A stretch of DNA of 64,000 nt. It comes from Verrucomicrobiales bacterium. GTDB taxonomy: Bacteria; Verrucomicrobiota; Verrucomicrobiia; Verrucomicrobiales; V1-33. The position numbers and the translations under genes are program-made. The stretch is taken from positions 628 through 64,627 of the forward strand of contig JAYVOP010000169.1 of NCBI GenBank assembly GCA_043757865.1. Reading direction: 5' to 3'. A model generated the notes under the pieces. The model saw only the letters and a list, made by a program, of their open reading frames with translations. It searched no databases and was not told where the DNA came from. Below, one piece after another: positions 27,214 through 62,412 of this stretch. How positions within the stretch are numbered: the first letter of the stretch is position 1; every line of letters begins with the position of its first letter.

Positions 27214-27225
27214 CGACTAAAAATG

Positions 27226-27357
27226 GGCTTTTAAATTGCGAATGAACGGCTTGCAAATTGCGAATGAACGGTCTGCGAATTGCGAATTACAGGCTTACAA
27301 ATTGCGAATAAACGGCTTGTAAATCGCGAATGAATGGCTTGCACATTGCGAATTTTG
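27226..27357. repeat. Six head-to-tail copies of a 22-bp direct repeat (consensus GGCTTGCAAATTGCGAATGAAC)
   Basis: The units are 27226-27247, 27248-27269, 27270-27291, 27292-27313, 27314-27335 and 27336-27357. There are no spacers between them. The core ATTGCGAAT is kept in 5 of 6 units. The array fills the divergent intergenic region between the GT4 gene start (27213) and the ATPase gene start (27373). Confidence 0.95.
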
Positions 27358-27372
27358 AGCATAAAATTTGCC

Positions 27373-28587
27373 ATGATTGAACGGGAAGCTAGTCAGTTGA
27401 TGAGTGAATTACTCCAGCAGTTTCCTGCTGTGGGGTTAGTGGGATCGCGCCAATGTGGGAAGACCACGTTGGCCAAGTCCTTTGGGAAATACTATTTCGA
27501 CATCGAAAGCGTAGCTGAACGAGGCCGCTTGGACGTTCAGTGGGATCACATTATGGCCGAGGATGAAATCGCAGTGTTTGATGAAGCCCAATGCTGGCCT
27601 GAACTTTTTGCGCGGTTGCGCGGGGCGATTGATGCCCGTCGCAAAGTGAAGGGGCGCTTTATTCTTCTGGGCTCTATTTCTCCTGAACTGATGAAACAAG
27701 TAGGACAGTCACTGGCTGGCCGCATGGGCCTCATGGAACTCACTCCGTTCCATGTGTCTGAGTTACCTGTGACTTCGGATGCTTTGCTGTGGCGTTACGG
27801 TGGCTACCCAGAAGGCGGCGTCTTAGAGGAGGGCGGTGGCTATCCCCGGTGGCAGAGTAGCTATTTGAAATTGATGTCTAAAAGGGATCTTCCTCAGTGG
27901 GGCTTGCCTGCTAAGCCAGAGCTTACGGAGCGGCTGTTCCGCCTGCTGGCGGGGATGCATGGCCAAGCTCAAAATGCTTCTGAGTTAGGGGCCGTGCTAG
28001 GCCTAACGCATACCACGATTCAAACTTACCTGGACTACCTAGAAGGCGCATTTCTAATTCGTCGGCTCCCGGCGTATCATGCCAAAGTAGCTAAGCGCAT
28101 AGTGCGCACACCCAAGGTTTATTGGAGGGACACCGGTTTGCTGCATCAACTGCTAGGCCTCACGGCTCAGGGGGAGCTATTGAATGCCCCGTGGGTTGGA
28201 GCCAGTTGGGAAAGCTGGGTCATTGAACAAATTCTGGCCCATCGCGCTGCCCAAGGGATCGACACCGCCGCTAGCTACTTCCGCACCAACGACGGTTGGG
28301 AATGTGACTTAGTGCTCGAAAGCGAAGGGAAACGCGAACTCATCGAGATCAGACTAACCACCGCTCCGGCCACTGAGGACTTGGCTAAACTGCGTAAAAT
28401 CCAAGCCCTTATAGGCGCAGATCGTTTGGTATTGCTAACGCGTTGTAGAGATCAACTAACAGAAGGCCATACTTGGATGACGGACTTGCGCGGCTACTTG
28501 GCGGCTAGTTCACCAGGAGCCGTGCCCGCTGTCAGCAGCCCTCGGAAAAAGTCAGCAAAGCACAGAGCCGAGGCGGCGGCGGTGTAG
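27373..28587 (+). CDS. AAA-family ATPase with a DUF4143-like C-terminal domain
   Basis: The Walker A motif is GLVGSRQCGKTTLAK. The Walker B-like motif is IAVFDEAQ. The C-terminal region follows the DUF4143 pattern (YHAKVAKRIVRTPKVYWRDTGLL). The start is the ATG at 27373. The 3' end overlaps the convergent GT gene by 94 nt. Confidence 0.8.
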   Translation: MIEREASQLMSELLQQFPAVGLVGSRQCGKTTLAKSFGKYYFDIESVAERGRLDVQWDHIMAEDEIAVFDEAQCWPELFARLRGAIDARRKVKGRFILLGSISPELMKQVGQSLAGRMGLMELTPFHVSELPVTSDALLWRYGGYPEGGVLEEGGGYPRWQSSYLKLMSKRDLPQWGLPAKPELTERLFRLLAGMHGQAQNASELGAVLGLTHTTIQTYLDYLEGAFLIRRLPAYHAKVAKRIVRTPKVYWRDTGLLHQLLGLTAQGELLNAPWVGASWESWVIEQILAHRAAQGIDTAASYFRTNDGWECDLVLESEGKRELIEIRLTTAPATEDLAKLRKIQALIGADRLVLLTRCRDQLTEGHTWMTDLRGYLAASSPGAVPAVSSPRKKSAKHRAEAAAV

Positions 28588-48900: not shown

Positions 48901-51900
48901 AACGCATAGCGCGCTGGTAACAACGTGTAAGTCCCCGCCCGCAAAGCTTCGCTGGCTCCCAGATATACTTGATCGCCAGCCTTCAGGCCGCCGTTTATAT
49001 AGCCTGGATCGCCTCCCAGGTTGCCAGCATTGCTGCTGTTATTGAATGCCCCGAAAGGCGCAAAGTTAGCGTTGTAACTCGGCATGACCGCAAAGCTAGT
49101 GGTCGAGGCCAAGATGTCTTTCGAGCCACCGATGCCTTGAATCCAACGATACGCATAGAGATCGCCCCCGCCGCTGATGTCGATCACCGAGCCTTGCTGC
49201 GTGTTCACTGCTAGACCAGCAATGTTGATCGCCTTCACTGGCGGCCCCGCCGTGGTGATGTCCGTGCCCGCTGGATCAATCCACGATGTGCCATTTTGCA
49301 GAATGCCATACGGAAATGTGAGACCACCACCAGAAATGGAAGTGAGGCTGCTAGGCAAGAGATTCACTGTTTTCGTAGAGCCTACTGCCAAGCCAGAAAA
49401 CGCATCCAGCGGAGCCGTGCCCGTGCCATCCCAGCCCAAATTTATAATGCCCAGCGGAGCGCGCAGGATGCCTCCCTGATTGATCACGCTAGCATAGACA
49501 TTGAGCGTCCCACCCGCCTCAAGCGGTAGATCTCGCCCGCCCGAGGGATTGATGGTGATGGTGCCGGACTGCGTGATGCCACTGATTTTATAGTCAGCCA
49601 CATTTAAAGTAAACAACGTAGCTGCCGCAGGATAAATTTGCGCAGCCGTTAAGTTTAGATGTCCGGCCATGTTCAGCGAGCCATCGCCACGAATGTCACC
49701 ATTCCTAGCCGTAAGATTGGCCAGCCCAATGCCTTGCAGCGAGAGATTCCCCATGTCGATATGATCCGCCGTGACGTTGAGAATGCCCGTGCCGTAAGTT
49801 GGTTTTGCGTCCGCCACCTTCGGCAAGACATCCAGTGCGTTGCTGGGCAGCAAGAACGCCTGACCCAGCGCCACGTAAGGCGCGGAGAGATTCACGGGGT
49901 CCTGCGTTTTGAGAAAACCAGAGTTAGCCACCAACAAACTACCACGCGCAGCAATGTCCACATTGCCCTTAAACTCCACCGCTCCAGATCCGCCTAACGT
50001 CAACGAATCGAAGCCTCCACTCAAAAAAGTATCCGCTGCAAAATAGCCCATACCAGGAGTAGCGTTTCCTCCCCCATTCCGCACGGCAGTGCCGATGCCT
50101 GCGAATCCAGCGGGCAGCGTGAGCCCGCTTTGTTTCACTAGCAACGAAGTGTCCAGCGGGGTCGGTGTATCCAGCGGATCATAATAACGACCCGACGTGA
50201 CGATCAAACTGCCGCCCAAGGCAGTAGCACCACCAGCAAATCCTTTGATCGTGGAATCCACAAACAGCTCTTGCGCACCACGCAGAATTACCGTGCCGCC
50301 ATTGCTATCAACGCGGGTGGCGGTGTTCAGGAAACGATACAGTGGAGAGGTAAGGCCGCTGGAAGTGAGCACCAGTGGAGTCGTTTCTGAGCCAAGGTAA
50401 TTCGGATGCAAGTCCAGCACACCGTTCGTCCCGGACACGTCGATCATGGAGCCAGCTTCAGCCACGATATTTCCTGACAACGTGACCGTGCCACCGGGCA
50501 ACACGCTGCCGACCCGACGCCCATAAGCATCTGGCTGCAAGACTACCATGCCAGCGGCCGACAACGAGCTGCGAGGCCCTAGATAGACCGTCGGCAGCGC
50601 TTGAGTGGCCGTTAGGTTCGAGGGAAATTTATTGGCTCCGGTGAGCGTGATGTTTCCACCCGGAGCAATCACAGAGCCGAGTAAGGCGATGGTATCCGCC
50701 TTGAAATTCACGGTGCTCAAGGGTGGGGTCCGCACGATGGCACCTTCGCCAAACGTCAAATCTCCGCGCACTTTGATGGCCGCATTGTAGTCATCCACGA
50801 CTGGCAACGAGCCAAAATTCAGCGTGAGCGCAGGCCGCATGGATTCGGGATACAGCACATGCGTGGTGGCAAAGGTCTCGCTGTTTGAAGGATACGGGAT
50901 CGCCAACAGACTGACCACTTGGGGAATGATAATCGTTTTTGGAGCCACGATTAAGCCCGGAATAAACTTGTCAGGATCTTCCGTCGCGCTACCAATGCCG
51001 TTGAGCGTAAACGTCGTGAACCCGCCCTCGTTAAAGAACTCCGGCTGTAAGATCGTGGTCCCGCGATAAGCCGAACGTCCGCCAATCTGGAGCAACAACG
51101 CCTGCAACGTCAGCGCTCCGCCTTTGGCATTCACTCCTGCATATCCCTTCAACGTCGCGCCTAATTCCAAGGTGCCACCGATTATGCCGGGCTTCGTGAC
51201 ATCGCGCCCCGTGTTGATAATGAGGCTGCCGCCATTGCCATAAGCCCTACTGCCCGTGGCTCCTAACGCCACGCCGCCAGAGACATCCAGCACCGCTCCC
51301 CGTTGCAGATTGGCGCTGAAACTATTGATCGTAATCGTGCCGCCATTCGTCAGCAATGGCAACGCCAGCGGATCGGGCGCGCTCAAGCGATCATCCACTA
51401 GCAAACCCGCCGTGCTCACGTTCGCCCCTGGAGCAATGGTCACATTACCACGTCCGACATTCGGCGGAGGCGACGCCGTGAGGAATGGCACCGCCCCGGG
51501 CGATAAATTGTAGGCGGTCAATTTCACAGTGCCACCTGGCAAAATAATGTTGCCCTGCACGTTAATGTTGGCTCCAGCCAAAGTCAGGCTACCGCTCGCA
51601 GGCCCCGTTAAATCAATGCCACGCGGCACTAGAATGTTCCCATCAGGATTGCTCACCCCAAAATTTCCAAAGCCAAATTCGCTAAGCCAAGTGGGGGGCA
51701 GCACCGTCTGCGCCACGCGCTCTGGCCGCAGCGCCAAGGGATTGCCACTGGCATCCACCGTGAATGGACCTGCGGCTGGCAAATGAGCATCGCCAAAGGA
51801 AACGCTGGGCGGTGTGGGAGAGAAATCGATCGGTACAGTGCCATTCAATTTCTGCGCAGTGAAATTTAGCTCTAGCGTGGACGCTTTCGCTAGCACGCTG

Positions 51901-54026
51901 CGTTGGCGCTCGCCATTGAGCGTATTGCCAAAGAAATCTCCATCCAGCGCCATCGCTGGCGAGGTGATCGCAAGTCGCCCACCATCCGCACCAAAGATGT
52001 AGCCAGGATCATAGTGGCTGTTCAACATCCACGGCACGGTATAGGTTTCACTAACGCCCCAGTGCGGATGATTCACTTTGAACAAACCATCGAAAATCCC
52101 TTGATACACCAAGTCTGGCGTCGCGTTGGCAATGTCTATCAGATGCCCATTCGCCCACACCCGGCTGGTCTGCACGAAGCCACCTTCAAAGTTTGTCCAG
52201 CCTGCGGAAACATCAATCTTGGCACCTTGCTGCACCACGACGGAACTGCCTGCATTCAGTTTCACAGAGCCCCCTGCAGTAGTTAGTTCACTCACGGAGC
52301 GCTGCACCACATTGAGGAATCCCGTGAGATCACCTAACGGCGTGCCGACCCACACTTGGCCGTTATAAACCCCCGTCTGCCGTAGATCCACGACCAGATT
52401 CACGCCCCGCAAGGCCCCCAGTCGTTGCAGCGGACTATCCGCTAATTCCGAGCCGCGTAACTGCACCACGATGATGTTTTCTGAAATGGGGGCAACGGCA
52501 TCCGTAGTGCCTGCCACATTGATCGTAGTGCCTGGCTCCAGATAAACTTGGCCACCAGAGAACAGCATACTGGAGTCAGGAGTAGCTCCAGAGATGTAAT
52601 TCCAAACCCCTGCGCTGATGGTCACGTTGGCATTCGGTGCCAGCAAGATGGCATCCGAATCTAGATGGATGGTCTTGCCAGAAATTTCCACTTTGCTAGG
52701 CAACGCGAGCTTGGTGCCGGACACCTTATCCGTGCTACTCCATTCCGGCAGGAGTTCCATGGCACTACCTTTACCTATTTCCACATGGCCGCTGGTGCGA
52801 TTCAGAAATCGCAGCGCAGTGTTGTCGGCGGAATTACTAACCGCATCGTAGTTGGCAGAAAGAATGATGCTGCCATTTAAAGAAACCGTAGTGCTAGAGC
52901 GCAGGCCGCCGAGCTGCTCCACGCGTTTCCCTGCCATGGTGATATTCCCGCGCATAGCTTCAATGTAACCGCTGTTGCGGGCAATGCCCACGATGCTAGC
53001 AACCGTCGGTGCGCCCGTCACGGCTCCAATGAACGTATCCAGACCTCGCACGCTAGGGTCTTCCGTGCGATGCGCCGTAAAGCCGACTTGCAAGCCAGCA
53101 GCCAAAATGGTCTGGCCATCCGGTGTTAGAATGCTGCCAGCGTTATGCACGTTAGGCCCCACTAGCGCGATGCGCCCGCCCACATGATCCGCTGAGGTGG
53201 GACTCGAAAGGATGGCTCCTACCTGCACGGTCACATCGCCAATCTTGCCCGCAGGCGGGAGCGGTGGCACGAAGGCAGAGGTCACTTTGCCAGCAGGCAG
53301 GTTCAGCGCGGAGAAAAGAAATTGTGAATCTGGATTATTCAGCAGACCGCGATTGATCAGGTTATCATTGATTGGCAATGACGAAGCCACCAACGTGTGG
53401 ACGTTCACTTGGCTGCCACTGCCAAAGATGATGCCATTTTGATTGATGATGTAAACTTGGCCCTGGGCGCTAATGGAACCCAGAATCTGCGAGGGCGACC
53501 CCGTGGGATCAGTCACGCGGTTAAAGGCTATCCACTGGCTGACGTTGGCTCCGCCTGCGCTTTGATCGAAATTTAAATGAGTGTCACGCCCCACATTAAA
53601 CGTGTTCCAGTTAATGAGCGCTTGCTGGCTCGTTTGCTTAATATTGACACTAGTGATAGCCCCATTTTGCGACTGCGTGGGAGCCTGCGCACCAATCGCA
53701 CTAGCGAAATGCAGCCCGCCTGGAGCTAGTCCATTGGGGATATTGAGAAGTTGTTGTCCTGGGTGATTGGGGTCCGCCCCCGCGTTGTTAGGCCCACTGC
53801 GGGCGGCAGCCTGCGCGGCGGCTTGTAAATTTTTGACCGCTTGGATTGACGAACTCGTGCGCGCTAAGGCATCACGCGCATTCGCGCGGGCTTGGGTGGC
53901 GGTAGCGGCGGTGGCGGCGGAGCTTCCAGAAGCGTTCGGGACATTGGCCGCCGTGCCTCCGCGCAGGATGTCGCCAGCCTGGAGCGACGTCGCGAGCGCC
54001 AGAAAAATGGAGCACAATGGTTTCAT
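42957..54026 (-). CDS. Giant TpsA-type exoprotein (filamentous-haemagglutinin family, N-terminal TPS domain, beta-helical repeats, DUF3739-like C-terminal region)
   Basis: The protein is 3689 aa with a signal peptide (MKPLCSIFLALATSLQA). The TPS domain reads NIKQTSQQALINWNTFNVGRDTHLNFDQ...NRVTDPTGSPSQILGSISAQGQVYIINQNGIIFG. Thousands of residues of G/A/T/S/N/L-rich beta-helix-like repeats follow. The C-terminal block reads GGDISIFAPGG...GGNISIFTDG...WSSTGDIAAGSSSKT...IDAGDAGIRS. After that comes PPPPPPAPAP and a charged tail, DEDPDEEERKRRAREAKEASEASEAIKPQ. Confidence 0.9.
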   Translation of the reverse strand: MKPLCSIFLALATSLQAGDILRGGTAANVPNASGSSAATAATATQARANARDALARTSSSIQAVKNLQAAAQAAARSGPNNAGADPNHPGQQLLNIPNGLAPGGLHFASAIGAQAPTQSQNGAITSVNIKQTSQQALINWNTFNVGRDTHLNFDQSAGGANVSQWIAFNRVTDPTGSPSQILGSISAQGQVYIINQNGIIFGSGSQVNVHTLVASSLPINDNLINRGLLNNPDSQFLFSALNLPAGKVTSAFVPPLPPAGKIGDVTVQVGAILSSPTSADHVGGRIALVGPNVHNAGSILTPDGQTILAAGLQVGFTAHRTEDPSVRGLDTFIGAVTGAPTVASIVGIARNSGYIEAMRGNITMAGKRVEQLGGLRSSTTVSLNGSIILSANYDAVSNSADNTALRFLNRTSGHVEIGKGSAMELLPEWSSTDKVSGTKLALPSKVEISGKTIHLDSDAILLAPNANVTISAGVWNYISGATPDSSMLFSGGQVYLEPGTTINVAGTTDAVAPISENIIVVQLRGSELADSPLQRLGALRGVNLVVDLRQTGVYNGQVWVGTPLGDLTGFLNVVQRSVSELTTAGGSVKLNAGSSVVVQQGAKIDVSAGWTNFEGGFVQTSRVWANGHLIDIANATPDLVYQGIFDGLFKVNHPHWGVSETYTVPWMLNSHYDPGYIFGADGGRLAITSPAMALDGDFFGNTLNGERQRSVLAKASTLELNFTAQKLNGTVPIDFSPTPPSVSFGDAHLPAAGPFTVDASGNPLALRPERVAQTVLPPTWLSEFGFGNFGVSNPDGNILVPRGIDLTGPASGSLTLAGANINVQGNIILPGGTVKLTAYNLSPGAVPFLTASPPPNVGRGNVTIAPGANVSTAGLLVDDRLSAPDPLALPLLTNGGTITINSFSANLQRGAVLDVSGGVALGATGSRAYGNGGSLIINTGRDVTKPGIIGGTLELGATLKGYAGVNAKGGALTLQALLLQIGGRSAYRGTTILQPEFFNEGGFTTFTLNGIGSATEDPDKFIPGLIVAPKTIIIPQVVSLLAIPYPSNSETFATTHVLYPESMRPALTLNFGSLPVVDDYNAAIKVRGDLTFGEGAIVRTPPLSTVNFKADTIALLGSVIAPGGNITLTGANKFPSNLTATQALPTVYLGPRSSLSAAGMVVLQPDAYGRRVGSVLPGGTVTLSGNIVAEAGSMIDVSGTNGVLDLHPNYLGSETTPLVLTSSGLTSPLYRFLNTATRVDSNGGTVILRGAQELFVDSTIKGFAGGATALGGSLIVTSGRYYDPLDTPTPLDTSLLVKQSGLTLPAGFAGIGTAVRNGGGNATPGMGYFAADTFLSGGFDSLTLGGSGAVEFKGNVDIAARGSLLVANSGFLKTQDPVNLSAPYVALGQAFLLPSNALDVLPKVADAKPTYGTGILNVTADHIDMGNLSLQGIGLANLTARNGDIRGDGSLNMAGHLNLTAAQIYPAAATLFTLNVADYKISGITQSGTITINPSGGRDLPLEAGGTLNVYASVINQGGILRAPLGIINLGWDGTGTAPLDAFSGLAVGSTKTVNLLPSSLTSISGGGLTFPYGILQNGTSWIDPAGTDITTAGPPVKAINIAGLAVNTQQGSVIDISGGGDLYAYRWIQGIGGSKDILASTTSFAVMPSYNANFAPFGAFNNSSNAGNLGGDPGYINGGLKAGDQVYLGASEALRAGTYTLLPARYALLPGAVLVTPQSGIPLGTVLKSDGASLVSGYRFNSLNGSREVLEIFSRWEVAPASVVRQRSEYQDYFANAWFTESATKRDATVPRLPIDAGQLVLAATTAMAVNGSVLATTSGGRGGLVDISSPVDILINTSGGAPVPGSLVLDAGQLNGFGAASLLIGGVRKMGANGTSVIVKTNHLTLDNASTPLTGPDIVLVANQALTLAASAQITQNGGTSGGADKISLNGDGLLVRVSSDPNAQVVRTGVTASTVPMMTVGAGVSLSGGSVTLDSTSATSLSPNASLLGQTVNLNSGQISLILNHAGALQPSTGLVLAGAALTNLQSASALNFLSYSSIDIYGTGQVGTASLNQLALHAAEIRGFNTGGGTARLMGQNIYLDNSPGRSAPGIIAAASGTLVLEGGTIHVGQGALNIDQYANVQLQASAGIINESSGSLKVEGNLFLTTPVIAGVAGSSQVLSAGGALTVQKPAGGGTAAITGGRGASLTLSGASLTQGSDILLPSGLLTLRATSGNLNIIGNLDLAGTGHVIQDLTKYSDGGQVKLTADIGNVTIGSGSVVRVAAAAGGGNAGGVSISAPLGQFVLDGSMAGQNGLGGRAGEFSLDAATIPDLDGTNATLNSTGFTAVRNFRIRTGDVTLGGVSNAQNFRLAVDAGKLTITGQINAAGNQGGSIALDASKSLILSSTAVLDASGLHFNSAGKGGDIFLATRGTAGGLLTLSAGSQIKLGVTDASGEGQFTGTLHLRAPQNASSSDLELSSIEGTITGASSIIAEGYKIFDLTNASGSTITTTVQNNVRNNGIMFVGDAGVASAGYNAMLARLTLSNAALQSVLRVQPGAEVINRTGDLILGTTSSTNTADWNLAGNRFGPLSVPGDLTLRAGGNLTFFNSLNDGFVTGAYTSLLLDQNPLLGANQQSYSYTLTAGADFTAANGNQVRAPSGLSATSGLLQLGKNGGLNLSTSPGTTAVTSTGIGTGGKLYQVIRTGSGNINVAAARDVQLLNQFSTIYTAGTKVTDATLGGQFAVPVLSLTGTQGALGAVQQSPGYAAQYTLAGGNVNIFAQGDIRHLTKNTAGALIDDSSRELPFNWLYRRGALDANGNFALSRNNEIASTSWWIDYSNFFEGVGALGGGNVSLTAGGDVRNVDAVAPTNARLTKGAAAASTLVELGGGNVMVNAGANIDGGAYYVERGQGTLNAGGEIKTNATRTPSLGSIINAAPLDSKTWLPTALFVGKGSFDVRARKDLLLGPVANPFWLPQGYSNTYWYKTYFNTYNASTAVSLSSLTGNVTLRTAVAAAGSTTATPILQTWLQNINLLTDNSVSRYQPWLRLDEASVTPFGVTSSIMPGTLKATAMAGNINLQGSLTLAPAARGTIDLVASGAINGLQAVGYNADLNGNVWSASIINLSDSNPDALPGVRTPFAFQSLLTNISVATRARETPNNLLDFVNQHFAESGSVNQALSDKQNLHAPGPLHIGDTQPLHLYAGTGDISGLNLFAGKSARVIAGNDIRDISFYLQNLTASDVSLVSAGRDITPYDATAPLRITAQSAGNSLATGEKPLLGDLQINGPGTLEVLAGRNLDLGSGASLQDGTGTGITSIGNARNPNLTFASSSLIVGAGVGGALGLESASLNFEAFITTYVTAANLSKYQTELAASFPGLTSGNFTALPREEQHRIALEVFYRLLRDSGREHNLAGGLNAGTYTSGLAAIASLFGTGTYVGDINTQSRDIRTKSGGDISIFAPGGKLSLATSVIGTPLAPPGIITESGGNISIFTDGNVDLGISRIFTLRGGNEIIWSSTGDIAAGSSSKTVASAPPTRVIIDPQSGDVKVDLAGLATGGGIGVLNTVAGLAPGSVDLIAVAGKIDAGDAGIRSAGTLNLAAPVIANAGNIAASGAASGAPAVAAPSSPSIAAAPPPPPPAPAPGPSTTDTPKTTAPTAEVPVSLVTVEITGYGGSNRDEDPDEEERKRRAREAKEASEASEAIKPQ

Positions 54027-54028
54027 AG

Positions 54029-54892
54029 CTAAGGCGCGGATTGTTTGAGTGCTTGCGCTAGGGTGAGTTCGTTGATGGACAAAGGATTTTCTTGCAGCAA
54101 CTTGGCCAGGACCTCCTTGGTGTTGATCTTAATTTTATCAGAGCGCATTTGCTGACGCAGTTGGGCGCGCACTTCATCTAGCAAAGGAGTGTAGGGTGCT
54201 TTGCTATCAAGCACCCTCACCACATGCCAGCCATCTTCCATTTTAATGGGCTCAGAAATGGCATTCAACGTGAGCTTGGGCAACAATGTGCGAATCTCTG
54301 GCTGCACATCAGTGTCCGCCACCCAACCAATCTCACCGCCCTTGCTAGCGCTGGCAGTTTCATCGCTGAACTCGTTGGCGAGGGAACTGAAGTCTGGTTT
54401 CCTGCCAGCCAAGGCCTTGCGCAGCGCTTCCAGCTTCGTCTTGGCGTTGGCGTTGGTAAGGTAGATCTGTGCGAGGCGATATTTCTTCGACTGCTGCAAC
54501 GCGGCCTTGCTCTCATTGTAAAATAGCTCCAATTCCGCATCGTTCGGAAAGGACTCCATCGGCTCGGCTTGCTTCTGTAAATAGGATTCCACCAGCGTCG
54601 TCTGTCGCACGCGCTCAAGCTGCGCCTTCACTTCTGGCTGCTCGTCGTATTTGGCCTCGGCCACTTTGCTCAACACTAATTTCTGCACTAGGACGGAGCG
54701 CACCAGTTGATTGAGCAAAGCCGGATTGTCGGCCAACGACGCCAGATCCTTCTGCGGTAAGTTGCCGAGCGACTCCTTGAGTTCTGGCAATTTCAATTCC
54801 GCCGGGCCGATCTTTGCAAGCACGCCCAAGCCCGTGGACTGTGCTAGCGCGCAGCTTGCGGAAAGGAGCACTATGGAACAAATGTGCTTCAT
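54029..54892 (-). CDS. Secreted parvulin-type peptidyl-prolyl isomerase (SurA/PpiD-like chaperone)
   Basis: The protein has a signal peptide. The PPIC rotamase domain reads FSSLANEFSDETASASKGGEIGWVA...EPIKMEDGWHVVRVLD. The stop lies 2 nt before the tpsA ATG. Confidence 0.75.
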   Translation of the reverse strand: MKHICSIVLLSASCALAQSTGLGVLAKIGPAELKLPELKESLGNLPQKDLASLADNPALLNQLVRSVLVQKLVLSKVAEAKYDEQPEVKAQLERVRQTTLVESYLQKQAEPMESFPNDAELELFYNESKAALQQSKKYRLAQIYLTNANAKTKLEALRKALAGRKPDFSSLANEFSDETASASKGGEIGWVADTDVQPEIRTLLPKLTLNAISEPIKMEDGWHVVRVLDSKAPYTPLLDEVRAQLRQQMRSDKIKINTKEVLAKLLQENPLSINELTLAQALKQSAP

Positions 54893-55560
54893 GGAACAGT
54901 TGGTTGACTAGGGGCCGTAGGCTTGGGCTTGGCTTGGGCATCATTTGGTTTCACCTTGGCGTCTTGCAGCTTGTCCTTGTAGTCCTGCACTAAAGTCTCC
55001 AGCTTCACCTTACTCAGCCCGGTGAATGGCTCCTTGGAGAGCAATGCCCGGCCTAATCCATAGTTCTCGTAACGTGTCAGAATTTCTTTTCCTAACTGAT
55101 ACAATTCCAGATTCTTGTTCTCCCGATCGAGCGCCTTCCGGTCCAGTTTGATGACTTCATCTGCCAACCGAGCGCGGTCATTTTCCTTCCCTTGCGCAGT
55201 GCTTTCCATCTTCTTGAAGGCGTCTTGCCACTGCTTTAGGGACTCATTGGCTTTCACCAAACGAGCCTCTTGGTCGGCAATCTTAGCTTTGGCATCGGCA
55301 CTATCCTTGTCTGTCCTCGCCTTGTCATCGGCACTGTTTTTCAGGGCCTGTTCCAGCTTCGCTTTCAAGTCCTTGTTGGCCGCTTCCGCCTCGTCCTTGG
55401 CGGCTTGCAACGTAGCCGCATCGCCTTGGGCAGTGCGCAGTTGCAGCATGGTGGTCTTTAATTGCTCGCGCATTTTGGCGATGGCCGGATCTGGTCCGGC
55501 GGCGGGTTCGGCGTGCGTAAAGGCCGTGAGTAAACTCAAAATGAGGAAAATTCGTTTCAT
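54889..55560 (-). CDS. Secreted coiled-coil protein of unknown function
   Basis: The start is the ATG at 55560 (MKRIFLILSLLTAFTHA signal). Long K/E/A/D/L heptad-like stretches follow. The stop overlaps the PPIase start as ATGA. Confidence 0.6.
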   Translation of the reverse strand: MKRIFLILSLLTAFTHAEPAAGPDPAIAKMREQLKTTMLQLRTAQGDAATLQAAKDEAEAANKDLKAKLEQALKNSADDKARTDKDSADAKAKIADQEARLVKANESLKQWQDAFKKMESTAQGKENDRARLADEVIKLDRKALDRENKNLELYQLGKEILTRYENYGLGRALLSKEPFTGLSKVKLETLVQDYKDKLQDAKVKPNDAQAKPKPTAPSQPTVP

Positions 55561-55561
55561 G

Positions 55562-57466
55562 TTAGAATTTGGTGCTGATGTCGATAAAGAAGACGTCGCT
55601 CTTGAGCGGCGGTCCGGCAATTTCTTGGGCACTCATCCATTGGAAGCCCACCTTGGTGCGCTTGGAGAGGGCCATGGAGGCTCCCAGGACAAAGCCTTTA
55701 GCATTGGTGCCACCGCCTGCAAATTCAGAATCAGTGAAGCCGTCGATGACTGCATCCGATTCCACATAGCGATAACCCACGAACGCATTCCAGTCATAGC
55801 GCTTAGCCAGCGCGGCCTTGCCCAGTTGCAGTTGCAGCATCCACGCGGTGTCACCACCTTCGTATTTTCCGATCTCTGTCGGCGTGGTGCGCGGCGTGGT
55901 GTCCGCCGTCGTGGTCGTAGTGGTTTTACCATCGGCCCCAGTGGTGGTGACATCGATCGTAGGCGGAGCGGGGTTCGGACCACGATTATTTACCGCTACT
56001 TTTTCGATGTCGCCCTGACGGAAAGCGAGGTTTTTCAGATACTCCCCTTTCAGCGATAACTGATAGGGTTCCCAATTATTGAAATCAATTTTCCCCGTGA
56101 GAGCCAGCACTTGGAAGGGCGTAGCATAGCCGAAATATTGATATTGATTGGTCGTGCCGAAGTTGTTCAACGGGCCTGGGACAATGTTTCTCAGTGCCAT
56201 GTAAGTATTCCCGCGTTGGGCAAAGGCGGGCCGTGTGGTGTCGGTGTTGCCCGCATCGGAGGCGCTAAGCGGCGTATAGGGATCAGACAATTTACCCTCG
56301 GCTCCTTTGAAATAATAGTAAGCCACGCCCACTTTGGCATCAATCTTCTTAGTCACTTGCCAATCAAAACCTACTTGGCCTGCGATGAGCCATTTGTCGG
56401 TACTATTATACTTGCTAGGTTGATTGCTACTGAAGTTTAGATCCGTGTTGTAGAAGGGCGAGAACGTGGCGTTTACAAACGGCGTGAAGCCTGGGACGAT
56501 CTCATATTTCCCCTGCAAGGCGATGCCGTCCATCCCCACGTCTTCATCAAAGAGCACGTCAGAACAGAAGAATGGATTATCAAAACGACCGAACGTGAGT
56601 GCGAGTTCCTTGCCTGGAATATCCCCCAGTTCCCATTTCATAAAGGCGCGGTCTAACCAGATGGCATACTTACTGAAATTACCACCTTGGCCACTGCCAG
56701 ATGCACCCAAACTTTGGTTAGTGGTCACTGGGCTGTTGCTTTCCCCAGTGCCAATGCGCAGCCCCCCCGTGAAGCCGTCACCAAGGTCTAACTCCGTGCC
56801 AATCCGAGCACGCAGTCTCATGCGAGAACGATTTGCATCAGTATTATATTGAGGGGAAAAATTCGTGCCGCTGGTATCAAATGGCGAGCCCGTGTTAATC
56901 GCGTTGAAGTTAGGAAAAGCACCCGTGTTATCATTTCCCTGCGGATAATTATCGACTTCAAAACGTAGCCGAATATCGCCAAAGGGCTTCCAACGGGAAA
57001 TCCATTCCGGCGTCTGGCCAGCGCCTGTCCACTTCTCCGTCTTAGCAGTGGCCATGACTTCGTCTTTGATTTCATCGCGAATTTTAGCACGTACGGTTTC
57101 GGGAATGTAGGGCACGCGCATGTCGTTATCACCCAACGGATCAGCCGTGGAGGCGGCACGAGCGTCTGCGGCGTCTTGCTCAGCTTGAGCGATCAGCGCT
57201 TGGCTTTCACCTTGAGTCAGAGCGCCTTTTTTCTCCAAAATGCGCAGCAGATTCACCATTGCATTTTGAGAGGGGGGATTGGCCGCAGCTTGCGGAGTTA
57301 CTAAATCACCCGCAGGCGGCAGCGCAGGAGCCTCCGGTGCTTCATTAGGTAAGGATGGCTCTGCAGGTGCAGCTTCTGGAGTTTGCGCAAACAGATTGGA
57401 TACACAAAGCGTAGAGGCTAGGAACAATGGCCAGGGACGGCCAACAAGACGGTAACGTTTTTTCAT
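55562..57466 (-). CDS. Outer-membrane beta-barrel protein (putative porin-like family)
   Basis: The protein has a signal peptide and a Pro/Ala-rich linker. Alternating beta-strand patterns run throughout. The C-terminus reads ...DVFFIDISTKF, and the terminal aromatic residue is an OMP beta-signal. The protein is 634 aa. Confidence 0.6.
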   Translation of the reverse strand: MKKRYRLVGRPWPLFLASTLCVSNLFAQTPEAAPAEPSLPNEAPEAPALPPAGDLVTPQAAANPPSQNAMVNLLRILEKKGALTQGESQALIAQAEQDAADARAASTADPLGDNDMRVPYIPETVRAKIRDEIKDEVMATAKTEKWTGAGQTPEWISRWKPFGDIRLRFEVDNYPQGNDNTGAFPNFNAINTGSPFDTSGTNFSPQYNTDANRSRMRLRARIGTELDLGDGFTGGLRIGTGESNSPVTTNQSLGASGSGQGGNFSKYAIWLDRAFMKWELGDIPGKELALTFGRFDNPFFCSDVLFDEDVGMDGIALQGKYEIVPGFTPFVNATFSPFYNTDLNFSSNQPSKYNSTDKWLIAGQVGFDWQVTKKIDAKVGVAYYYFKGAEGKLSDPYTPLSASDAGNTDTTRPAFAQRGNTYMALRNIVPGPLNNFGTTNQYQYFGYATPFQVLALTGKIDFNNWEPYQLSLKGEYLKNLAFRQGDIEKVAVNNRGPNPAPPTIDVTTTGADGKTTTTTTADTTPRTTPTEIGKYEGGDTAWMLQLQLGKAALAKRYDWNAFVGYRYVESDAVIDGFTDSEFAGGGTNAKGFVLGASMALSKRTKVGFQWMSAQEIAGPPLKSDVFFIDISTKF

Positions 57467-57493: not shown

Positions 57494-58174
57494 CTAGTTC
57501 GGTCGCGCGATGTTGATGCGCATGTTGATCGGCATCGGCATGCCGTTAGGGGGAGGCTCGGGGAGCTGGAGGCCCTGTAACACATTGGCATCCAGCGACT
57601 GGGCAGTGTTTTGATCGCCACTGACATTGCGCAGCACAGCCTTGGTCACGCGGCCCGTGGAGTCCGTCCAGAGGCTGGCTTCGCAACGGAGCGCGGCGGT
57701 TTTGGTGAAGGAATTTCTCGTGATGGCACTAACAAGCGCCTTTTGTGTGGATAGCACAAAGCCATCATATTTGCCTTTCTTATGACCCCCGCCAATGCTC
57801 GCCACGCGACGGGGCCCACCGGGCAAGACGCCCCCTGGAGCGACTGGCGCATCATTAGAAGGCGCAGCATCGGCGGGGGAGTCAGGAGGGGTATCGGGTT
57901 CATCCACTACTTTCTCTTGCACTACTTCTTTGACCTCCACGGGCGGCGGTGGTGGTGGCGGCGGCAGCGGGGGAGGTGGCGGCGGGAGGGTGATGCTGAC
58001 AACGTGTTCCACTTTAGAGACGCGCATTTTCTCTACGGGTGGACGGGTGGCTAAATAAGCGGCAACACCTCCGAATGCACCTAACATCGCCAAGAAGGCG
58101 AGTGGATTGCGCTTGTAGAGGGGGCGTTCGTCGAACTCATCGAACTCGTCTTCAGGTAGGTTTTGCTTTGCCAT
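57494..58174 (-). CDS. TonB-like energy-transducer protein
   Basis: An N-terminal TM anchor (FLAMLGAFGGVAAYLA) is followed by the proline-rich rod PPPPPPLPPPPPPPPVEVKEV and a ~90-aa C-terminal domain. I prefer the ATG at 58174 because the track start at 58204 is TTG. Confidence 0.7.
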   Translation of the reverse strand: MAKQNLPEDEFDEFDERPLYKRNPLAFLAMLGAFGGVAAYLATRPPVEKMRVSKVEHVVSITLPPPPPPLPPPPPPPPVEVKEVVQEKVVDEPDTPPDSPADAAPSNDAPVAPGGVLPGGPRRVASIGGGHKKGKYDGFVLSTQKALVSAITRNSFTKTAALRCEASLWTDSTGRVTKAVLRNVSGDQNTAQSLDANVLQGLQLPEPPPNGMPMPINMRINIARPN

Positions 58175-58187
58175 AAAATGAGATGGT

Positions 58188-58583
58188 TTACTTTTCGCTA
58201 GCAAGATTAATTTGAGTGATGCCCATTTTGTTGAGCGTGTCTAACACGGGCCAGAGCATGTTGTATTGCGCTAGTCCATCGCCTCGGATAATGACTGGGG
58301 AGTCAGGAAATTTCCCCCGCCAGACAGAGATGCGCCCTTCCAGATCGCCCAAGGGGGTAGGGCTGGTGGATTTATCTACCATGACGCCACCTTGGGCGTT
58401 GATGGTGATCGAGAGCGGCTTTTTCTCCGTCAACGTGGCTGCACTGCTGCTTTTGGGTAGGTTCACTTTCAAGCCTTGTACGCTGGCGGTGGTCATGATG
58501 ATGAAGATCAGCAGGAGCACTAAATAAAGGTCCACCATCGGCGTGACGTTGATGTCGTCGTAGGATTTATCGTCGGCATTCAT
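58188..58583 (-). CDS. exbD: ExbD/TolR family protein
   Basis: The motif DINVTPMVDLYLVLLLIFIIMTT is followed by a periplasmic domain containing VIIRGDGLAQYNMLWPVLDTLNKMGI. The protein is 131 aa. Confidence 0.85.
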   Translation of the reverse strand: MNADDKSYDDINVTPMVDLYLVLLLIFIIMTTASVQGLKVNLPKSSSAATLTEKKPLSITINAQGGVMVDKSTSPTPLGDLEGRISVWRGKFPDSPVIIRGDGLAQYNMLWPVLDTLNKMGITQINLASEK

Positions 58584-58589
58584 GGCTAA

Positions 58590-60428
58590 TTATTCGTTGG
58601 CGGTGGGATAGGCCTCAGCAATCCGGGCGACGAATTCATCAATAAAGATTTCCATGCCATTGATGGTGTCTTTAATACGCGCATTTAAATAGCTGTATAA
58701 AAACAACGCCGGAATAGCGACCGCCAGCCCCGCCACTGTGGCCAGCAGCGCACCTGCGATACCCGGAGCGATTGAATTGATCTCCACCTGCCCGCTTTGA
58801 GCGATCACAGCAAAGGTCATCATCACCCCAATGACCGTGCCCAGCAGCCCTAGGTAAGGACCACCTGCAATGCCAATGGTGAGGAACACTAACTTGCTCT
58901 GCAAACGCTGCACTTCCCGTACGTGGCCACCATCCAGCGTGGCGCGGATGGCTTCGATCGAGCGCCCGGAGAGCCCGGAAAATTTCTCTTTATCCGCATC
59001 GATTCGCTTCTGGATTTCTTGTGATCCAATATGATAAATGTGAAACAACGGAGACTGCCGCATGAGCCGCTGTTCTCCGCCGGAGGCTGCTCCCAGCCCC
59101 GCCTTGCCGTCTTCGTTGGCGTGATCCAACGCGGTCAGATCACCAGAAATGTCTTTCCAGCGACGGAGGAATGCTTTGGTAGCAGCGGAAATTTTATTCA
59201 AATAGAGGAATTTCTGCACACCCACCATCCAGCCCACGATGGCCAACAAAACGCAGCCGATGATCACAATTTTGCCATCGAAAGTGAGGTCTTTACCAAT
59301 GTTGCGGAACATCTTCACCTGCGAAATAAACTCGCTTTCCTTTTCCGCTTCTTCAGCCGCTTCCACCACGCTTTGCGTAATCATCTTGGCGGCCTCTGGG
59401 CCAGTACCTTGGCTGATCGCAGCGAGCTTGATACTGCCTGGTTCGCGCGCTATTTTGGAGATTTCTAACTCATCAATTTCTCCGCTAAATGAAGTATCGC
59501 CCGGAGTGTCGGTTTTCCCCAAAATGCTGGGGCCACTCAGTGCCGGAAGGCCCACGGAAATGGTGCCCGCTGCCGTGCCATTGAGATAGAGAGTGATGCT
59601 AGGCCCATTGGCGATGACCGCCAGATGCGCCCACGCATTGACGATCAATGACGTGGTGCCCGTGGCGACTTGTTTATTGCCACCTGTGGTAATCTCTACA
59701 TAAGGCAGCCCCTTATTTTCACCCACCACAAATCCGTTATCGCCCTCCTGACGACTAAAGATCATGGCCTTTTCCCGCAGCGCACTGGGCTTGACCCACA
59801 GCGACCAAGTGAGCCCGCCATTGGCATTCCATTGCATGGCTGGATTGTCCATTTTAATGGGCTTGGGAGCAGGTAAGCGCAAGCCGTTGCCAATGATAGC
59901 CCCGTAAGCCACCGCACCTGAGGCATCCGGGAGAATGGAGTTAGGACCGGAGTCCAAGGCGGCGGCATTGTTTTCCGCGAAGTGATACACTAAGATCGTA
60001 TCCGCATCATAAGTAGCCTTAGGTTCAAATGATTTCGTGGCCTTACTATTGCCATAGTAGAGCCAAATTTTGGTAGCTGCTTCTGGCTGTAAGCTGGGAA
60101 GTTTCACCCACACCGCCGCCTCTCCGATGGAGGCATCCCACTGCTCAATGTGATACGAAAGCAGTGTCTTATCATCATCCGCCAAGAAACGTAAATCGGA
60201 CGCATCATCCAACGTGCCGGAAGGGAAATTCGCATCTTTTAAACGGATCAACACGGCCGTAGTGCCAATGGGATTACCGATGGCAAAACCTTTCTCAGAA
60301 GTATCAATGGTGATCTTCTTACGCGACGTCCAATCCTTATTCCACCAGTCTCCTGCGTGCGAGAATGCGACGGTGCCCAGCAAGATACTGGATGTGTAAA
60401 TAAGAGAGCGAAGGGAGGAACAAAGCAT
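58590..60428 (-). CDS. MotA/TolQ/ExbB proton-channel protein with a large N-terminal periplasmic DUF2341-like and LamG/ConA-like extension
   Basis: The protein is 612 aa. The N-terminus has a signal or TM segment followed by GDWWNKDWTSRKKITIDTS (a DUF2341-type start). Next comes LTWSLWVKPS...AWAHLAVIANGPSITLYLNGTAAG (LamG-like). The C-terminal 230 aa form the ExbB core (GGPYLGLLGTVIGVMMTF...GIAGALLATVAGLAVAIPALFLY). Confidence 0.8.
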   Translation of the reverse strand: MLCSSLRSLIYTSSILLGTVAFSHAGDWWNKDWTSRKKITIDTSEKGFAIGNPIGTTAVLIRLKDANFPSGTLDDASDLRFLADDDKTLLSYHIEQWDASIGEAAVWVKLPSLQPEAATKIWLYYGNSKATKSFEPKATYDADTILVYHFAENNAAALDSGPNSILPDASGAVAYGAIIGNGLRLPAPKPIKMDNPAMQWNANGGLTWSLWVKPSALREKAMIFSRQEGDNGFVVGENKGLPYVEITTGGNKQVATGTTSLIVNAWAHLAVIANGPSITLYLNGTAAGTISVGLPALSGPSILGKTDTPGDTSFSGEIDELEISKIAREPGSIKLAAISQGTGPEAAKMITQSVVEAAEEAEKESEFISQVKMFRNIGKDLTFDGKIVIIGCVLLAIVGWMVGVQKFLYLNKISAATKAFLRRWKDISGDLTALDHANEDGKAGLGAASGGEQRLMRQSPLFHIYHIGSQEIQKRIDADKEKFSGLSGRSIEAIRATLDGGHVREVQRLQSKLVFLTIGIAGGPYLGLLGTVIGVMMTFAVIAQSGQVEINSIAPGIAGALLATVAGLAVAIPALFLYSYLNARIKDTINGMEIFIDEFVARIAEAYPTANE

Positions 60429-60490
60429 GAGAAGATAAGAAAATGGAGTGGAGAAATGCTGTGGTATCTATGTCATCAGACGGGTGACAC

Positions 60491-60522
60491 TCACAAGTTG
60501 TGCTGTGTGACGTTGTTGTTTC
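60491..60522 (-). promoter_or_regulatory. Conserved ~32-bp element upstream of exbB (copy A), containing the inverted half-sites GTCACA-N10-TGTGAC
   Basis: The + strand reads tcacaagttgtgctgtgtgacgttgttgtttc. It matches copy B (62324-62355) at 29 of 32 positions. The proximal edge is 63 nt upstream of the exbB ATG at 60428. Confidence 0.7.
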
Positions 60523-60564
60523 AGTGGCGTGTTGGCTGCGTGGCTAAGCTGTGGCGGGAGTTGG

Positions 60565-62265
60565 CTAAAAATCAGTAGATACTTTAAACGACAACAACAC
60601 CTCGCCCACCTTGGCGTTCGTTTGATTGATCAACGGCCAGCCTGCATCCAGTGAGCCGTGGAAATGATTCTTTAATTTCACCCGCGTGCCGACTCCGACG
60701 CTCATGAGTTTGAAGGTATCCTTTTGGTCGGGAAGTGGATCCACGATGGAGAGTCTCGCACCGTCCCAGAAGCCGTAGATGCGCCATTCATTGGCGGGAT
60801 CGCGGGTGGCTTCGCTTTCCTTTTCTGGCTGAGGGTTCATGCGCCCTAATAAGGATGGAGTGCGGAGTTCTAACGTGACGGCTAGGCCGTTATCACCTAG
60901 CTGGGTGGACTCTAGGTAGCCCCGCACGGTGCCCATGCCCCCAGCGGAAAATTGCTCGCTGTTAATGAGAGAATTGGCGGTGCCTTGCGTGGAAATTTTA
61001 CCGAACACCTGCGCGCCTAACGGCAAGTCTTGGGTATGCGAGGCATCAGCCCTAATGTGGAAGAAAGCCGCGCTGGCTTGGTAGCGTTTGTTGTCGTATT
61101 CCAATTCATCGCTGCCGCCTAGGCCACGCAGGCTGAAGGTGGCGGTGGAATTAAATTCCGTAAATGAATGTTTCCCTGACCAGTTCGCGCCATAGCTAGC
61201 ACTGATGGGGAAATAGGTGATCGGCGTGGCGATTTCACTTGTCCCAACGAGCACGTTCTCTTTGAAATGCTTGTAGTCCACACCGAGGCTAGCGGTCTGG
61301 TAGAACTCCGCTTCCGTTGGTAAATTAATCAGCGCCCGCACGCCAAAAATCTCGCCCCGACCAGTCACAGCGGCTCCTCCCAATGTGGAAACATTGCTGT
61401 CCTGCTTGGTGGCATTTAGCATCAAGCTGACGTTGTCCAACGAATCGAATTTTGCCAAATAGTAGGCGGCATAAACGGAGGCATCCTTGGGGCTTTCAGG
61501 CGCTACTTGATAGCTGATGCCGGCCGCGTGGCCTTTTTGCCAAAGATTCGAATAGTTCAAAGCTGCATTCACCCGCAACGGAGCGGTGTCCGCAGTGTAG
61601 CGGTTATTCAATTCAAGGCTGCCATGCAGCGGAGATTTATCTTTCACTTCCAGATCAATATCCACCGTGCCAGGCTCTACGCCTGGATTCACGGACGGCT
61701 TCACTTGCAGGTCTGGCGCGGAATTCAACGCGATGATCTCCTTGGTGACTTCATTGAAATCTACCACCTTTCCCTCGGCTAGGGAGGGCACGCGCTGCTT
61801 GATTTGATCCAACGTGAAGTATCGCGAATTCCGCACCCGCAGTCGGCCCACAGTATTCTCCGTCACCAGCATTTTGATAACCCCGCGTCTGGGCACTTGT
61901 GGCGGCACTTCCACGACGACGGTTTTATATCCTTTGTCTTGAAACGCCTTTTCCAAAGCCGCTCGCGCGCCCTCTACGTCCTTGGTCGTGCGGCTCGGGC
62001 CGAGAAACGGATACACTGCTTTTTCCACCTCCGGCAGCGTCAAATGTTGCACTCCCGTGACACGATATTCGCGCACGTACAGACTATCCTCGGGACCGTC
62101 CGAGGGAGCCTCTGGCGCGGGCTCATTATCAGGAAATGCCGCATCGGAACGCGGTGACATCGTCGAGGCCGTTTCCGCTAGAGCATTTCCTAACCCCAGC
62201 AGCACGCCGCAGACCACGGCTAGAGGGGCGCGCGCGGCGGGCGGGGTAGTGGAAAATGATCGCAT
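60565..62265 (-). CDS. TpsB outer-membrane transporter (ShlB/FhaC/HecB family, POTRA domains plus beta-barrel)
   Basis: The POTRA region reads YVREYRVTGVQHLTLPEVEKAVYPFLGP...DVEGARAALEKAFQDKGYKTVVVEVPPQ. It is followed by a 16-strand-like barrel with C-terminus ...LLSFKVSTDF. I favour the ATG at 62265 (MRSFSTTPPAARAPLAVVCGVLLGLGNALA) over 62301. That choice places the conserved upstream element at the same distance as in exbB. Confidence 0.85.
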   Translation of the reverse strand: MRSFSTTPPAARAPLAVVCGVLLGLGNALAETASTMSPRSDAAFPDNEPAPEAPSDGPEDSLYVREYRVTGVQHLTLPEVEKAVYPFLGPSRTTKDVEGARAALEKAFQDKGYKTVVVEVPPQVPRRGVIKMLVTENTVGRLRVRNSRYFTLDQIKQRVPSLAEGKVVDFNEVTKEIIALNSAPDLQVKPSVNPGVEPGTVDIDLEVKDKSPLHGSLELNNRYTADTAPLRVNAALNYSNLWQKGHAAGISYQVAPESPKDASVYAAYYLAKFDSLDNVSLMLNATKQDSNVSTLGGAAVTGRGEIFGVRALINLPTEAEFYQTASLGVDYKHFKENVLVGTSEIATPITYFPISASYGANWSGKHSFTEFNSTATFSLRGLGGSDELEYDNKRYQASAAFFHIRADASHTQDLPLGAQVFGKISTQGTANSLINSEQFSAGGMGTVRGYLESTQLGDNGLAVTLELRTPSLLGRMNPQPEKESEATRDPANEWRIYGFWDGARLSIVDPLPDQKDTFKLMSVGVGTRVKLKNHFHGSLDAGWPLINQTNAKVGEVLLSFKVSTDF

Positions 62266-62323
62266 GGTGGTATGATTGAAGCTGGGGGAATTAGGGCTCA
62301 CTTATTTCAATCGCACGGGCTGG

Positions 62324-62355
62324 TCACAAGTTACGCTGTGTGACATTGTTGTTTC
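62324..62355 (-). promoter_or_regulatory. Conserved ~32-bp element upstream of tpsB (copy B)
   Basis: The + strand reads tcacaagttacgctgtgtgacattgttgtttc. The proximal edge is 59 nt upstream of the ATG at 62265. On the minus strand both copies read GAAACAACAAYGTCACACAGCRYAACTTGTGA. Confidence 0.7.
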
Positions 62356-62412
62356 CGATGGTGCGGCCAAGTGCCACAAGTCCGTGGCCCTGTCTTCTTG
62401 CAGTGCGGTCAT

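Follow-up and report, generated by a model that had tools for sequence, protein, structure and literature searches.

Genes and element copies at the tpsB locus

We analyzed a 64,000-nucleotide stretch of DNA from a Verrucomicrobiales bacterium (contig JAYVOP010000169.1, positions 628 to 64,627; the whole stretch is called the window below). It contains two copies of a 32-nt element, one upstream of tpsB (copy B) and one upstream of the exbB-like gene (copy A), in an operon that lies on the minus strand. tpsB (60565..62265), the first gene after copy B, encodes a ShlB/FhaC-type outer-membrane transporter (Pfam POTRA_2 and ShlB). TpsB has more than 3000 homologues, and the best of them are from Verrucomicrobiota (Roseimicrobium, Luteolibacter, and Chthoniobacter). 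The first gene after copy A encodes an ExbB/TolQ-type proton-channel protein (58590..60428) with an N-terminal DUF2341 and LamG extension (Pfam DUF2341, Laminin_G_3, and MotA_ExbB); its matches to the NCBIfam TolQ/ExbB models are under the curated cut-offs. The next genes are exbD (58583..58188, from its Pfam match), a gene for a 236-aa TonB-like protein (58204..57494, with a weak TonB_2 match, E = 0.0095), a Porin_5 gene (57466..55562, Pfam), a gene for a 247-aa protein of unknown function (55632..54889), and a gene for a PpiC-type peptidyl-prolyl isomerase (PPIase; 54892..54029, Pfam). The last gene of the block (42957..54026) encodes a giant TpsA-type exoprotein of 3689 aa, with a two-partner secretion (TPS) domain at residues 121-248 and a DUF3739 domain of the FHA family at residues 3493-3603 (both Pfam).

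The tpsB and exbB-like open reading frames (ORFs) start with plausible signal peptides and their lengths agree with those of the orthologues. The gene order from tpsB to tpsA is the same in every close relative fetched (L003-L008). No Shine-Dalgarno sequence was recognisable before the tpsB ATG (62266-62285) or the ExbB-like ATG (60429-60445). Directly upstream of tpsB, 18 loci encode a family of ~360-450-aa proteins, often as two tandem paralogues (the 401-aa protein of the window, 62413-63618; L003, 6583-8881; L010, 2275-4844). This family had no match in Pfam or NCBIfam, and it is possibly part of the system.

On the minus strand, copy A (60522..60491) reads GAAACAACAACGTCACACAGCACAACTTGTGA and copy B (62355..62324) reads GAAACAACAATGTCACACAGCGTAACTTGTGA. 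The two copies are identical at 29 of the 32 positions, and a repeat search listed them as one family (D18, 91% identity). Copy A ends 63 nt before the exbB-like ATG (60428) and copy B ends 59 nt before the tpsB ATG (62265). The initial annotation of this DNA had reported the element with the same positions, strand, identity, and distances, and all of them held. It had noticed no further copy, and a search with the degenerate 32-mer, allowing up to three mismatches, found only copies A and B in the 64 kb and none in 100 shuffles. Two copies in 64 kb also rule out a REP-like (repetitive extragenic palindromic) abundance within the window. The core of the element had been described as a GTCACA-N10-TGTGAC inverted repeat. 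This repeat is perfect in copy B, but the second arm of copy A is TGTGAG (5/6), and a scan of the whole window for the dyad with at most one mismatch gave a single further match, an unrelated one at 26251. The flanks, which had been called unrelated, mostly are, except for a TGA-nATA(A)G block that both copies share 17-18 nt 3' of the 32-mer.

Conservation of the site upstream of tpsB

We compared the element with ~70 orthologous Verrucomicrobiota loci. The closest relatives encode TpsB proteins 61-73% identical to that of the window, and 80 more distant metagenomic loci encode TpsB proteins ~50% identical to it. The closest relatives also have the element upstream of tpsB, though without the second arm of the palindrome. 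The sequences from L006 and L007 read ...TGTCACACAGCACATCTTGAGAG, that from L008 reads ...TTGAGTG, and that from L003 reads TGCGACGATATTGTCACA...TTGAGAG. Three blocks have survived in these close relatives, namely (T)GAAACAACAATGTCACA, TTGNGA 9 nt on, and TGAnATAG 15 nt further, while the rest has diverged. In the distant loci the first block resolves to an 18-bp motif, TGTGACA-N4-(T/C)GTCACA, and this site starts 82-91 nt before the tpsB ATG. Over all orthologous copies, the distance from start codons is fixed at 82-95 nt. Across loci the left repeat is TGTGACA or TGTCACA, and thus the site can be read as a tandem repeat, as the response regulator PhoB requires. The phylum consensus is TGTSACA-N4-TGTSACA, then a TTGAGR hexamer 9 nt downstream, and then TGn plus nATnnn 17-18 nt on. 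When the sequences were aligned on the motif, cTTGAG was found at +28..+33 and nATnnT at +52..+57, in columns that had been used neither for anchoring nor for picking the sites. Sites with at most one mismatch to TGTSACA-N4-TGTSACA occurred at 1.46/kb in the 180 nt upstream of tpsB, compared with 0.010/kb elsewhere in these loci (481 kb), and 30 of the 68 distinct loci had a site with at most two mismatches within these 180 nt.

The layout of two 7-nt repeats separated by 4 nt (7-4-7), with an 11-nt period, is present in both window copies and in ~30 orthologous sites. Judged by this alignment, the 32-mer consists of a degenerate left and a consensus right repeat with a 4-nt spacer between them, and of a -35-like hexamer that follows after 9 nt. 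The apparent palindrome is a chance pairing of the right repeat with the putative -35 box in its TTGTGA variant. In copy B, the Pho-box-like site GGAAACA-ACAA-TGTCACA (62339..62356, minus strand) is the positional homologue of TGTGACA-N4-TGTCACA in the orthologous loci; its left repeat is degenerate and its right repeat equals the consensus (7/7). The -35-like hexamer TTGTGA (62324..62329, minus strand), which is the second arm of the palindrome, is TTGAGA or TTGAGT in relatives. After a 17-nt spacer follows an extended -10-like element, TGA+AATAAG (62301..62309, minus strand), at the place of the TGAnATAG that is conserved in close relatives. Copy A has the same parts on the same strand in the tpsB-exbB intergenic region: a Pho-box-like site, TGAAACA-ACAA-CGTCACA (60506..60523), whose right repeat matches the consensus at 6/7 positions, a TTGTGA hexamer (60491..60496) with the position and sequence seen in copy B, and, after an 18-nt spacer, an extended -10-like TGA+CATAGA (60467..60475) that lines up with TGAnATAG in the tpsB promoters of orthologous loci.

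Copy A is evidently specific to this lineage and arose when the operon's own promoter was duplicated into the space between tpsB and exbB. In 39 distinct orthologous loci the median tpsB-exbB gap is 26 nt (range 3-40 nt in relatives), compared with 136 nt in the window, and no site was found in this gap in any relative among the 39 loci. Apparent large gaps in some loci were due to mis-called ExbB starts, with a conserved ATG ~20 nt after the tpsB stop. Conservation at orthologues, which the initial annotation had named as a check, was thus found upstream of tpsB and not upstream of exbB, and the gap without a site in relatives speaks against two ancestral sites. The derived TTGTGA is common to both copies and stands in place of the TTGAGA of relatives. 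Some ancestral states are kept by one copy only (T at position 1 and CAGCAC in copy A, TGTCACA in copy B). The stretch of 17-18 nt that separates the -35 box from the -10 box differs much more between the copies than the 33-nt block, which argues that both copies are under selection.

A double site of another kind was seen in L008, where two sites lie upstream of tpsB (2331-2348 and 2427-2444). The site at -82 is of the clade type and reads TGAAACAACAATGTCACA, and the one at -178 reads TGCGACGATATTGGCACA. The single site of L003 has the same left half and spacer as the -178 site. An ancestral double site may thus have been resolved in different ways in these two lineages.

Candidate Pho box and alternative regulators

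Several observations connect the site with phosphate genes. Clustering of the ORFs upstream of tpsB showed that a response regulator of the OmpR/PhoB family (~228 aa) is encoded divergently from tpsB in ~10 loci, and the intergenic regions shared by the two genes often contain extra copies of the motif. The best NCBIfam match of these regulators is PhoB. Homologues of 227 aa, with 69-80% identity to them, are annotated as PhoB by JGI, and they include the regulators of phoB-phoR operons that bear the motif. In L211-L213, a PhoB-like gene is followed by a gene for a PAS-HisKA-HATPase kinase with overlapping stop and start codons, which is the phoB-phoR arrangement. The sole site with at most two mismatches in each of these 20-kb loci lies 66 nt before the phoB ATG, and its geometry is the same (site, N9, hexamer, N18, TAnnnT). 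In L018, there is a perfect site upstream of a PstS-type gene (PBP_like_2, 135 bits), and the tpsB site is common to a divergent Porin_O_P gene.

We also made an unbiased scan of 185,579 species genomes for the bare 14-base palindrome. The matches listed were mostly from other phyla and included at least five Verrucomicrobiota loci, which are a sample and not a census of the regulon. Among the matches listed, the five Verrucomicrobiota sites were at pstS-pstC-pstA (L143), at pstS (L198), at a PHO4/PiT transporter gene in Akkermansia (L123), beside btaA/btaB (L105), and at one unassigned place (L092). The small regulon that had been proposed for the element is not borne out, since the same motif is found at pstS, the PiT transporter gene, and phoBR in related genomes and thus most likely marks the phosphate-starvation regulon. 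Genes for a DUF3419 (BtaA-like) protein and a methyltransferase (BtaB-like) adjoin the perfect Pho-box-like site in L105 (421-2545), and they directly follow the PhoB-like regulator in L044 (1396-3442). We take these two proteins to be the BtaA/BtaB pair that makes a phosphorus-free betaine lipid. Their position suggests that betaine-lipid remodelling is under phosphate control in Verrucomicrobiota. A PhoX-like reading of a 527-aa protein in L014 had no Pfam support and was dropped. In a full-text literature search, we found no description of a Pho box for Verrucomicrobiota.

Since the sites are at Pho genes, the accompanying regulator is PhoB-like, and the sites have the 7-4-7 form and a TGTCA core, PhoB is the best candidate for the binding protein. 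We consider it quite likely that the element is a Pho box (PhoB site) joined to an activator-dependent promoter, and that copy B is ancestral while copy A was copied inside the operon. The conservation and geometry of the site, its association with Pho genes and phoB in related genomes, and the uniqueness of copy A were observed directly. From these we infer that PhoB binds the site, that phosphate limitation induces the operon, where transcription starts, and that copy A is active. The dimeric regulator site adjoining a promoter, as the initial annotation had it, stands in outline, but its dyad does not, since the conserved site is the upstream 18 bp, TG(A/T)(A/G)ACA-N4-(T/C)GTCACA. The proposed co-control is also supported in outline: a regulator site adjoining the promoter most likely brings tpsB and the genes after it under shared control.

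The promoter might work as follows. The first 18 bp (T/GGAAACA-ACAA-T/CGTCACA) would form two 7-bp repeats with an 11-bp period, to which a dimer of PhoB would bind when phosphate is scarce. The -35-like TTGTGA, the last 6 bp of the 32-mer, would be used 9 bp downstream of the site, with the TGn-extended -10-like hexamer 17-18 bp after it, and transcription is predicted to start ~30 nt before each ATG. The centre of the site would then be near -54, which is ~22 bp or two helical turns upstream of the position of the Escherichia coli Pho box, and thus on the same face of the helix. Phosphorylated PhoB may recruit or stabilise RNA polymerase at this otherwise weak promoter. Copy B would be the ancestral promoter of tpsB-exbB-exbD-tonB-porin-X-PPIase-tpsA, where X is the 247-aa protein, and copy A would provide a second phosphate-responsive start for the Ton-like motor, the porin, the PPIase, and the giant TpsA, driven by the same signal.

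Two other readings of the promoter regions were rejected. A second, proximal Pho box over the -35 box is not supported, as the conserved CTTGAG is out of phase with the 11-nt period, and a sigma-54 reading of TGGCAC-N5 upstream of copy B (~62370-62385) failed since the -12 TTGC is absent by eye. A short, G+C-rich hairpin, GCCACGGACTTGTGGC (minus strand, 62373-62388), lies between the stop codon of the 401-aa gene and copy B. The hairpin lacks a T-run on the coding strand, and it could be a weak terminator or insulator between the upstream gene and the putative Pho promoter.

When all 22-mers of the window were scored on both strands with a position weight matrix (PWM) built from out-of-clade sites, copy A ranked first and copy B ninth. 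The second-best match (8.7 bits) was AATGTTGCACTCCCGTGACACG on the plus strand (62043-62064), inside tpsB in the region that encodes the conserved REYRVxGV, and it is probably a by-product of the coding sequence. Some results count against a Pho box. The PWM scores of copies A and B are 10.1 and 2.5 bits, compared with 14.7-35 bits for the training sites. These scores are low because the left repeat is TGAAACA or GGAAACA, which fits TGTSACA at 4-5/7 positions only. The entire 22-nt block including the spacer is conserved in the clade, which is more than a Pho box needs and might point to a further or changed contact with protein. No phoB, phoR, or pst gene is present within the 64-kb window. 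In E. coli, the Pho box overlaps the -35 box or takes its place, whereas here a -35-like TTGAGR is present and the site ends 9 nt before it and 33-34 nt before the -10-like block. The site is thus ~22 bp, or about two helical turns, upstream of where the E. coli box lies. A scan with a strict sigma-70 consensus found no promoter at copy A or copy B. TTGTGA matches the sigma-70 -35 box at 4/6 positions and is followed 17-18 nt on by TGn-AATAAG or TGn-CATAGA, and both blocks are positionally conserved across loci. Weak hexamers and a negative strict scan are as expected for activator-dependent promoters, but they are not positive evidence for one.

The variant left repeat and spacer found throughout the clade are the main reason to keep a rival explanation, in which the 18-bp site and the promoter are the same but the binding protein is an operon-dedicated OmpR-family paralogue or a clade regulator that recognises the TGAAACAACAA arm. 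In five clade sequences the left arm and spacer are conserved as TGAAACAACAA, departing from the phylum consensus, and this arm possibly marks a changed specificity of PhoB or a co-regulator in the clade. The regulators adjacent to tpsB score 199-241 bits, below the NCBIfam PhoB equivalog cut-off of 296, and no PhoR-like kinase gene was found after them in the DNA fetched. Moreover, the identical 18-mer is found at BceA-type ABC modules in Firmicutes; OmpR-family paralogues can share this type of motif, and thus it alone is not diagnostic of PhoB. The low scores and the shared 18-mer also weigh against PhoB itself. However, the regulators adjacent to tpsB are 70-80% identical to those of the phoB-phoR operons with the same motif, the motif precedes pstS, PiT, and phoBR genes, and the window sites agree with the phylum-wide site in their right repeat, their spacing, and the geometry of the promoter that follows. 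We therefore regard a different regulator as unlikely, and PhoB is kept as the candidate.

A symmetric dimeric regulator that binds GTCACA-N10-TGTGAC and controls a small private regulon is less probable still, and the comparison of loci contradicts it. The inverted repeat of the window copies would suit such a protein, and two distant lineages (L020 and L060/L061) likewise have TTGTGAC(A) in place of the -35 box. However, the second arm is TTGAGAG or TTGAGTG in L006, L007, L008, and L003, where the symmetry is lost and the rest is conserved. The half-sites are 16 bp apart from centre to centre, and thus they would be on opposite faces of the helix, and the conserved partner of GTCACA is upstream of it, not downstream.

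There is also little to recommend a site for an activator of the CRP/FNR family, even though the consensus TGTGACA-N4-TGTCACA holds the TGTGA and TCACA arms of such a palindrome. CRP-type sites have 6 nt between the arms, whereas here the arms are 8 nt apart. Perfect direct-repeat versions, such as GTCACA-N5-GTCACA in L042, L050, and L087, do not fit a symmetric CRP dimer. Furthermore, the neighbouring regulator is a response regulator and not a member of the CRP family, and the target genes are phosphate genes.

Equally slight are the chances of an extracytoplasmic function (ECF) sigma promoter with (T)GAAAC as its -35 box, or of an RNA-level or REP-like repeat: TGAAAC does resemble ECF -35 boxes (the T is present in 4/5 clade sequences) and read-through from tpsB would transcribe copy A, but there is no conserved CGT-type -10 at 16-17 nt downstream, most of the phylum reads TGTGAC and not GAAC at this position, the element has no Rfam match, its predicted folds do not exceed those of shuffled sequence in stability (z = +1.85 and +0.79), and the two copies in 64 kb, each at a fixed distance from a start codon, are unlike a REP or miniature inverted-repeat transposable element (MITE). 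The doubt that the initial annotation had expressed about an ECF promoter was justified.

Elsewhere in the window, a polysaccharide-biosynthesis cluster contains ~7 tandem copies of a 22-bp unit, GGCTTGCAAATTGCGAATGAAC (27204-27379). The array is flanked by a GT4 glycosyltransferase gene (26047..27213, minus strand) and an AAA_14-DUF4143 ATPase gene (27334..28587, plus strand), and it looks like iterons or an operator array.

Comparison with known systems

A PHO box is defined as two 7-nt repeats separated by 4 nt, with an 11-nt period and a TGTCA core, and the consensus repeat in E. coli is CTGTCAT (PMC4415409). The Verrucomicrobiota sites are similar in that they are 18-bp units of the 7-4-7 form, with a less conserved, often A/T-rich spacer and the TGTCA core in the right repeat. 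They are upstream of pstS, phoBR (which would indicate autoregulation), a phosphate porin gene, and lipid-remodelling genes, and the candidate regulator is an OmpR/PhoB-family response regulator with a PAS-HisKA kinase. They differ in the left repeat, which is usually TGTGACA, so that the site looks palindromic, and which has decayed to TGAAACA in the clade of the window. A testable Pho box consensus for Verrucomicrobiota would be TGTSACA-N4-TGTSACA with TTGAGR 9 nt later. With this consensus, the phosphate-starvation regulon should be predictable from genomes and metagenome-assembled genomes, including those of Akkermansia. Current concepts would be unchanged, and known ones would be extended to a new phylum.

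The identical 18-mer TGTGACA-N4-TGTCACA was also found just upstream of genes for BceA-like ATPases in at least 16 Firmicutes loci (including L118, L120, L122, L130, L135, L146, L160, L176, L186, L193, L196, L202, and L206). There it is, we presume, probably the site of BceR-type OmpR-family regulators. These sites differ from those described here in phylum, target genes, and signal.

Copy A resembles duplicated promoters within operons, as a complete module of site, -35, and -10 is found between genes that are contiguous in relatives; the promoter at copy A is putative. The window might thus be a clean natural example of an internal promoter that was made by copying the operon's own regulatory module.

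The operon itself looks like a counterpart of PA0690-PA0699 of Pseudomonas aeruginosa, under what may be direct PhoB control. The P. aeruginosa genes (pdtA, phdA, pdtB, exbB2, exbD2, tonB4, the porin gene PA0696, PA0697, PA0698, and the PpiC PPIase gene PA0699) are expressed under phosphate starvation via PhoB and sigma-VreI (PMC7035377). Judged by Pfam content and gene order only, both operons encode TpsB, ExbB, ExbD, TonB, a porin, one or more unknown proteins, and a PpiC PPIase, plus a giant TpsA. Control by phosphate limitation, which has been shown in P. aeruginosa, is inferred for the operon of the window. In the window, tpsA is downstream and not upstream, the ExbB protein has the DUF2341-LamG extension, and vreAIR genes (which include the ECF sigma gene) are absent, and thus control by PhoB appears to be direct. 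If so, a widespread, uncharacterised operon for a TPS transporter, a Ton motor, a porin, and a giant exoprotein would be placed in the phosphate regulon, and its P. aeruginosa parallel is likewise of unknown function. A more tentative idea, which we would not favor at present, is that TpsB-ExbBD-TonB-porin-PPIase-TpsA is an ancient machine that has remained under phosphate-starvation control in lineages as far apart as Pseudomonadota (pdtAB-exbB2D2-tonB4) and Verrucomicrobiota. In that case the machine would have a direct role in phosphorus acquisition, for example in the Ton-energised handling of a giant exoprotein, and the duplicated promoter of the window would reflect selection to raise or uncouple the expression of the motor and TpsA.

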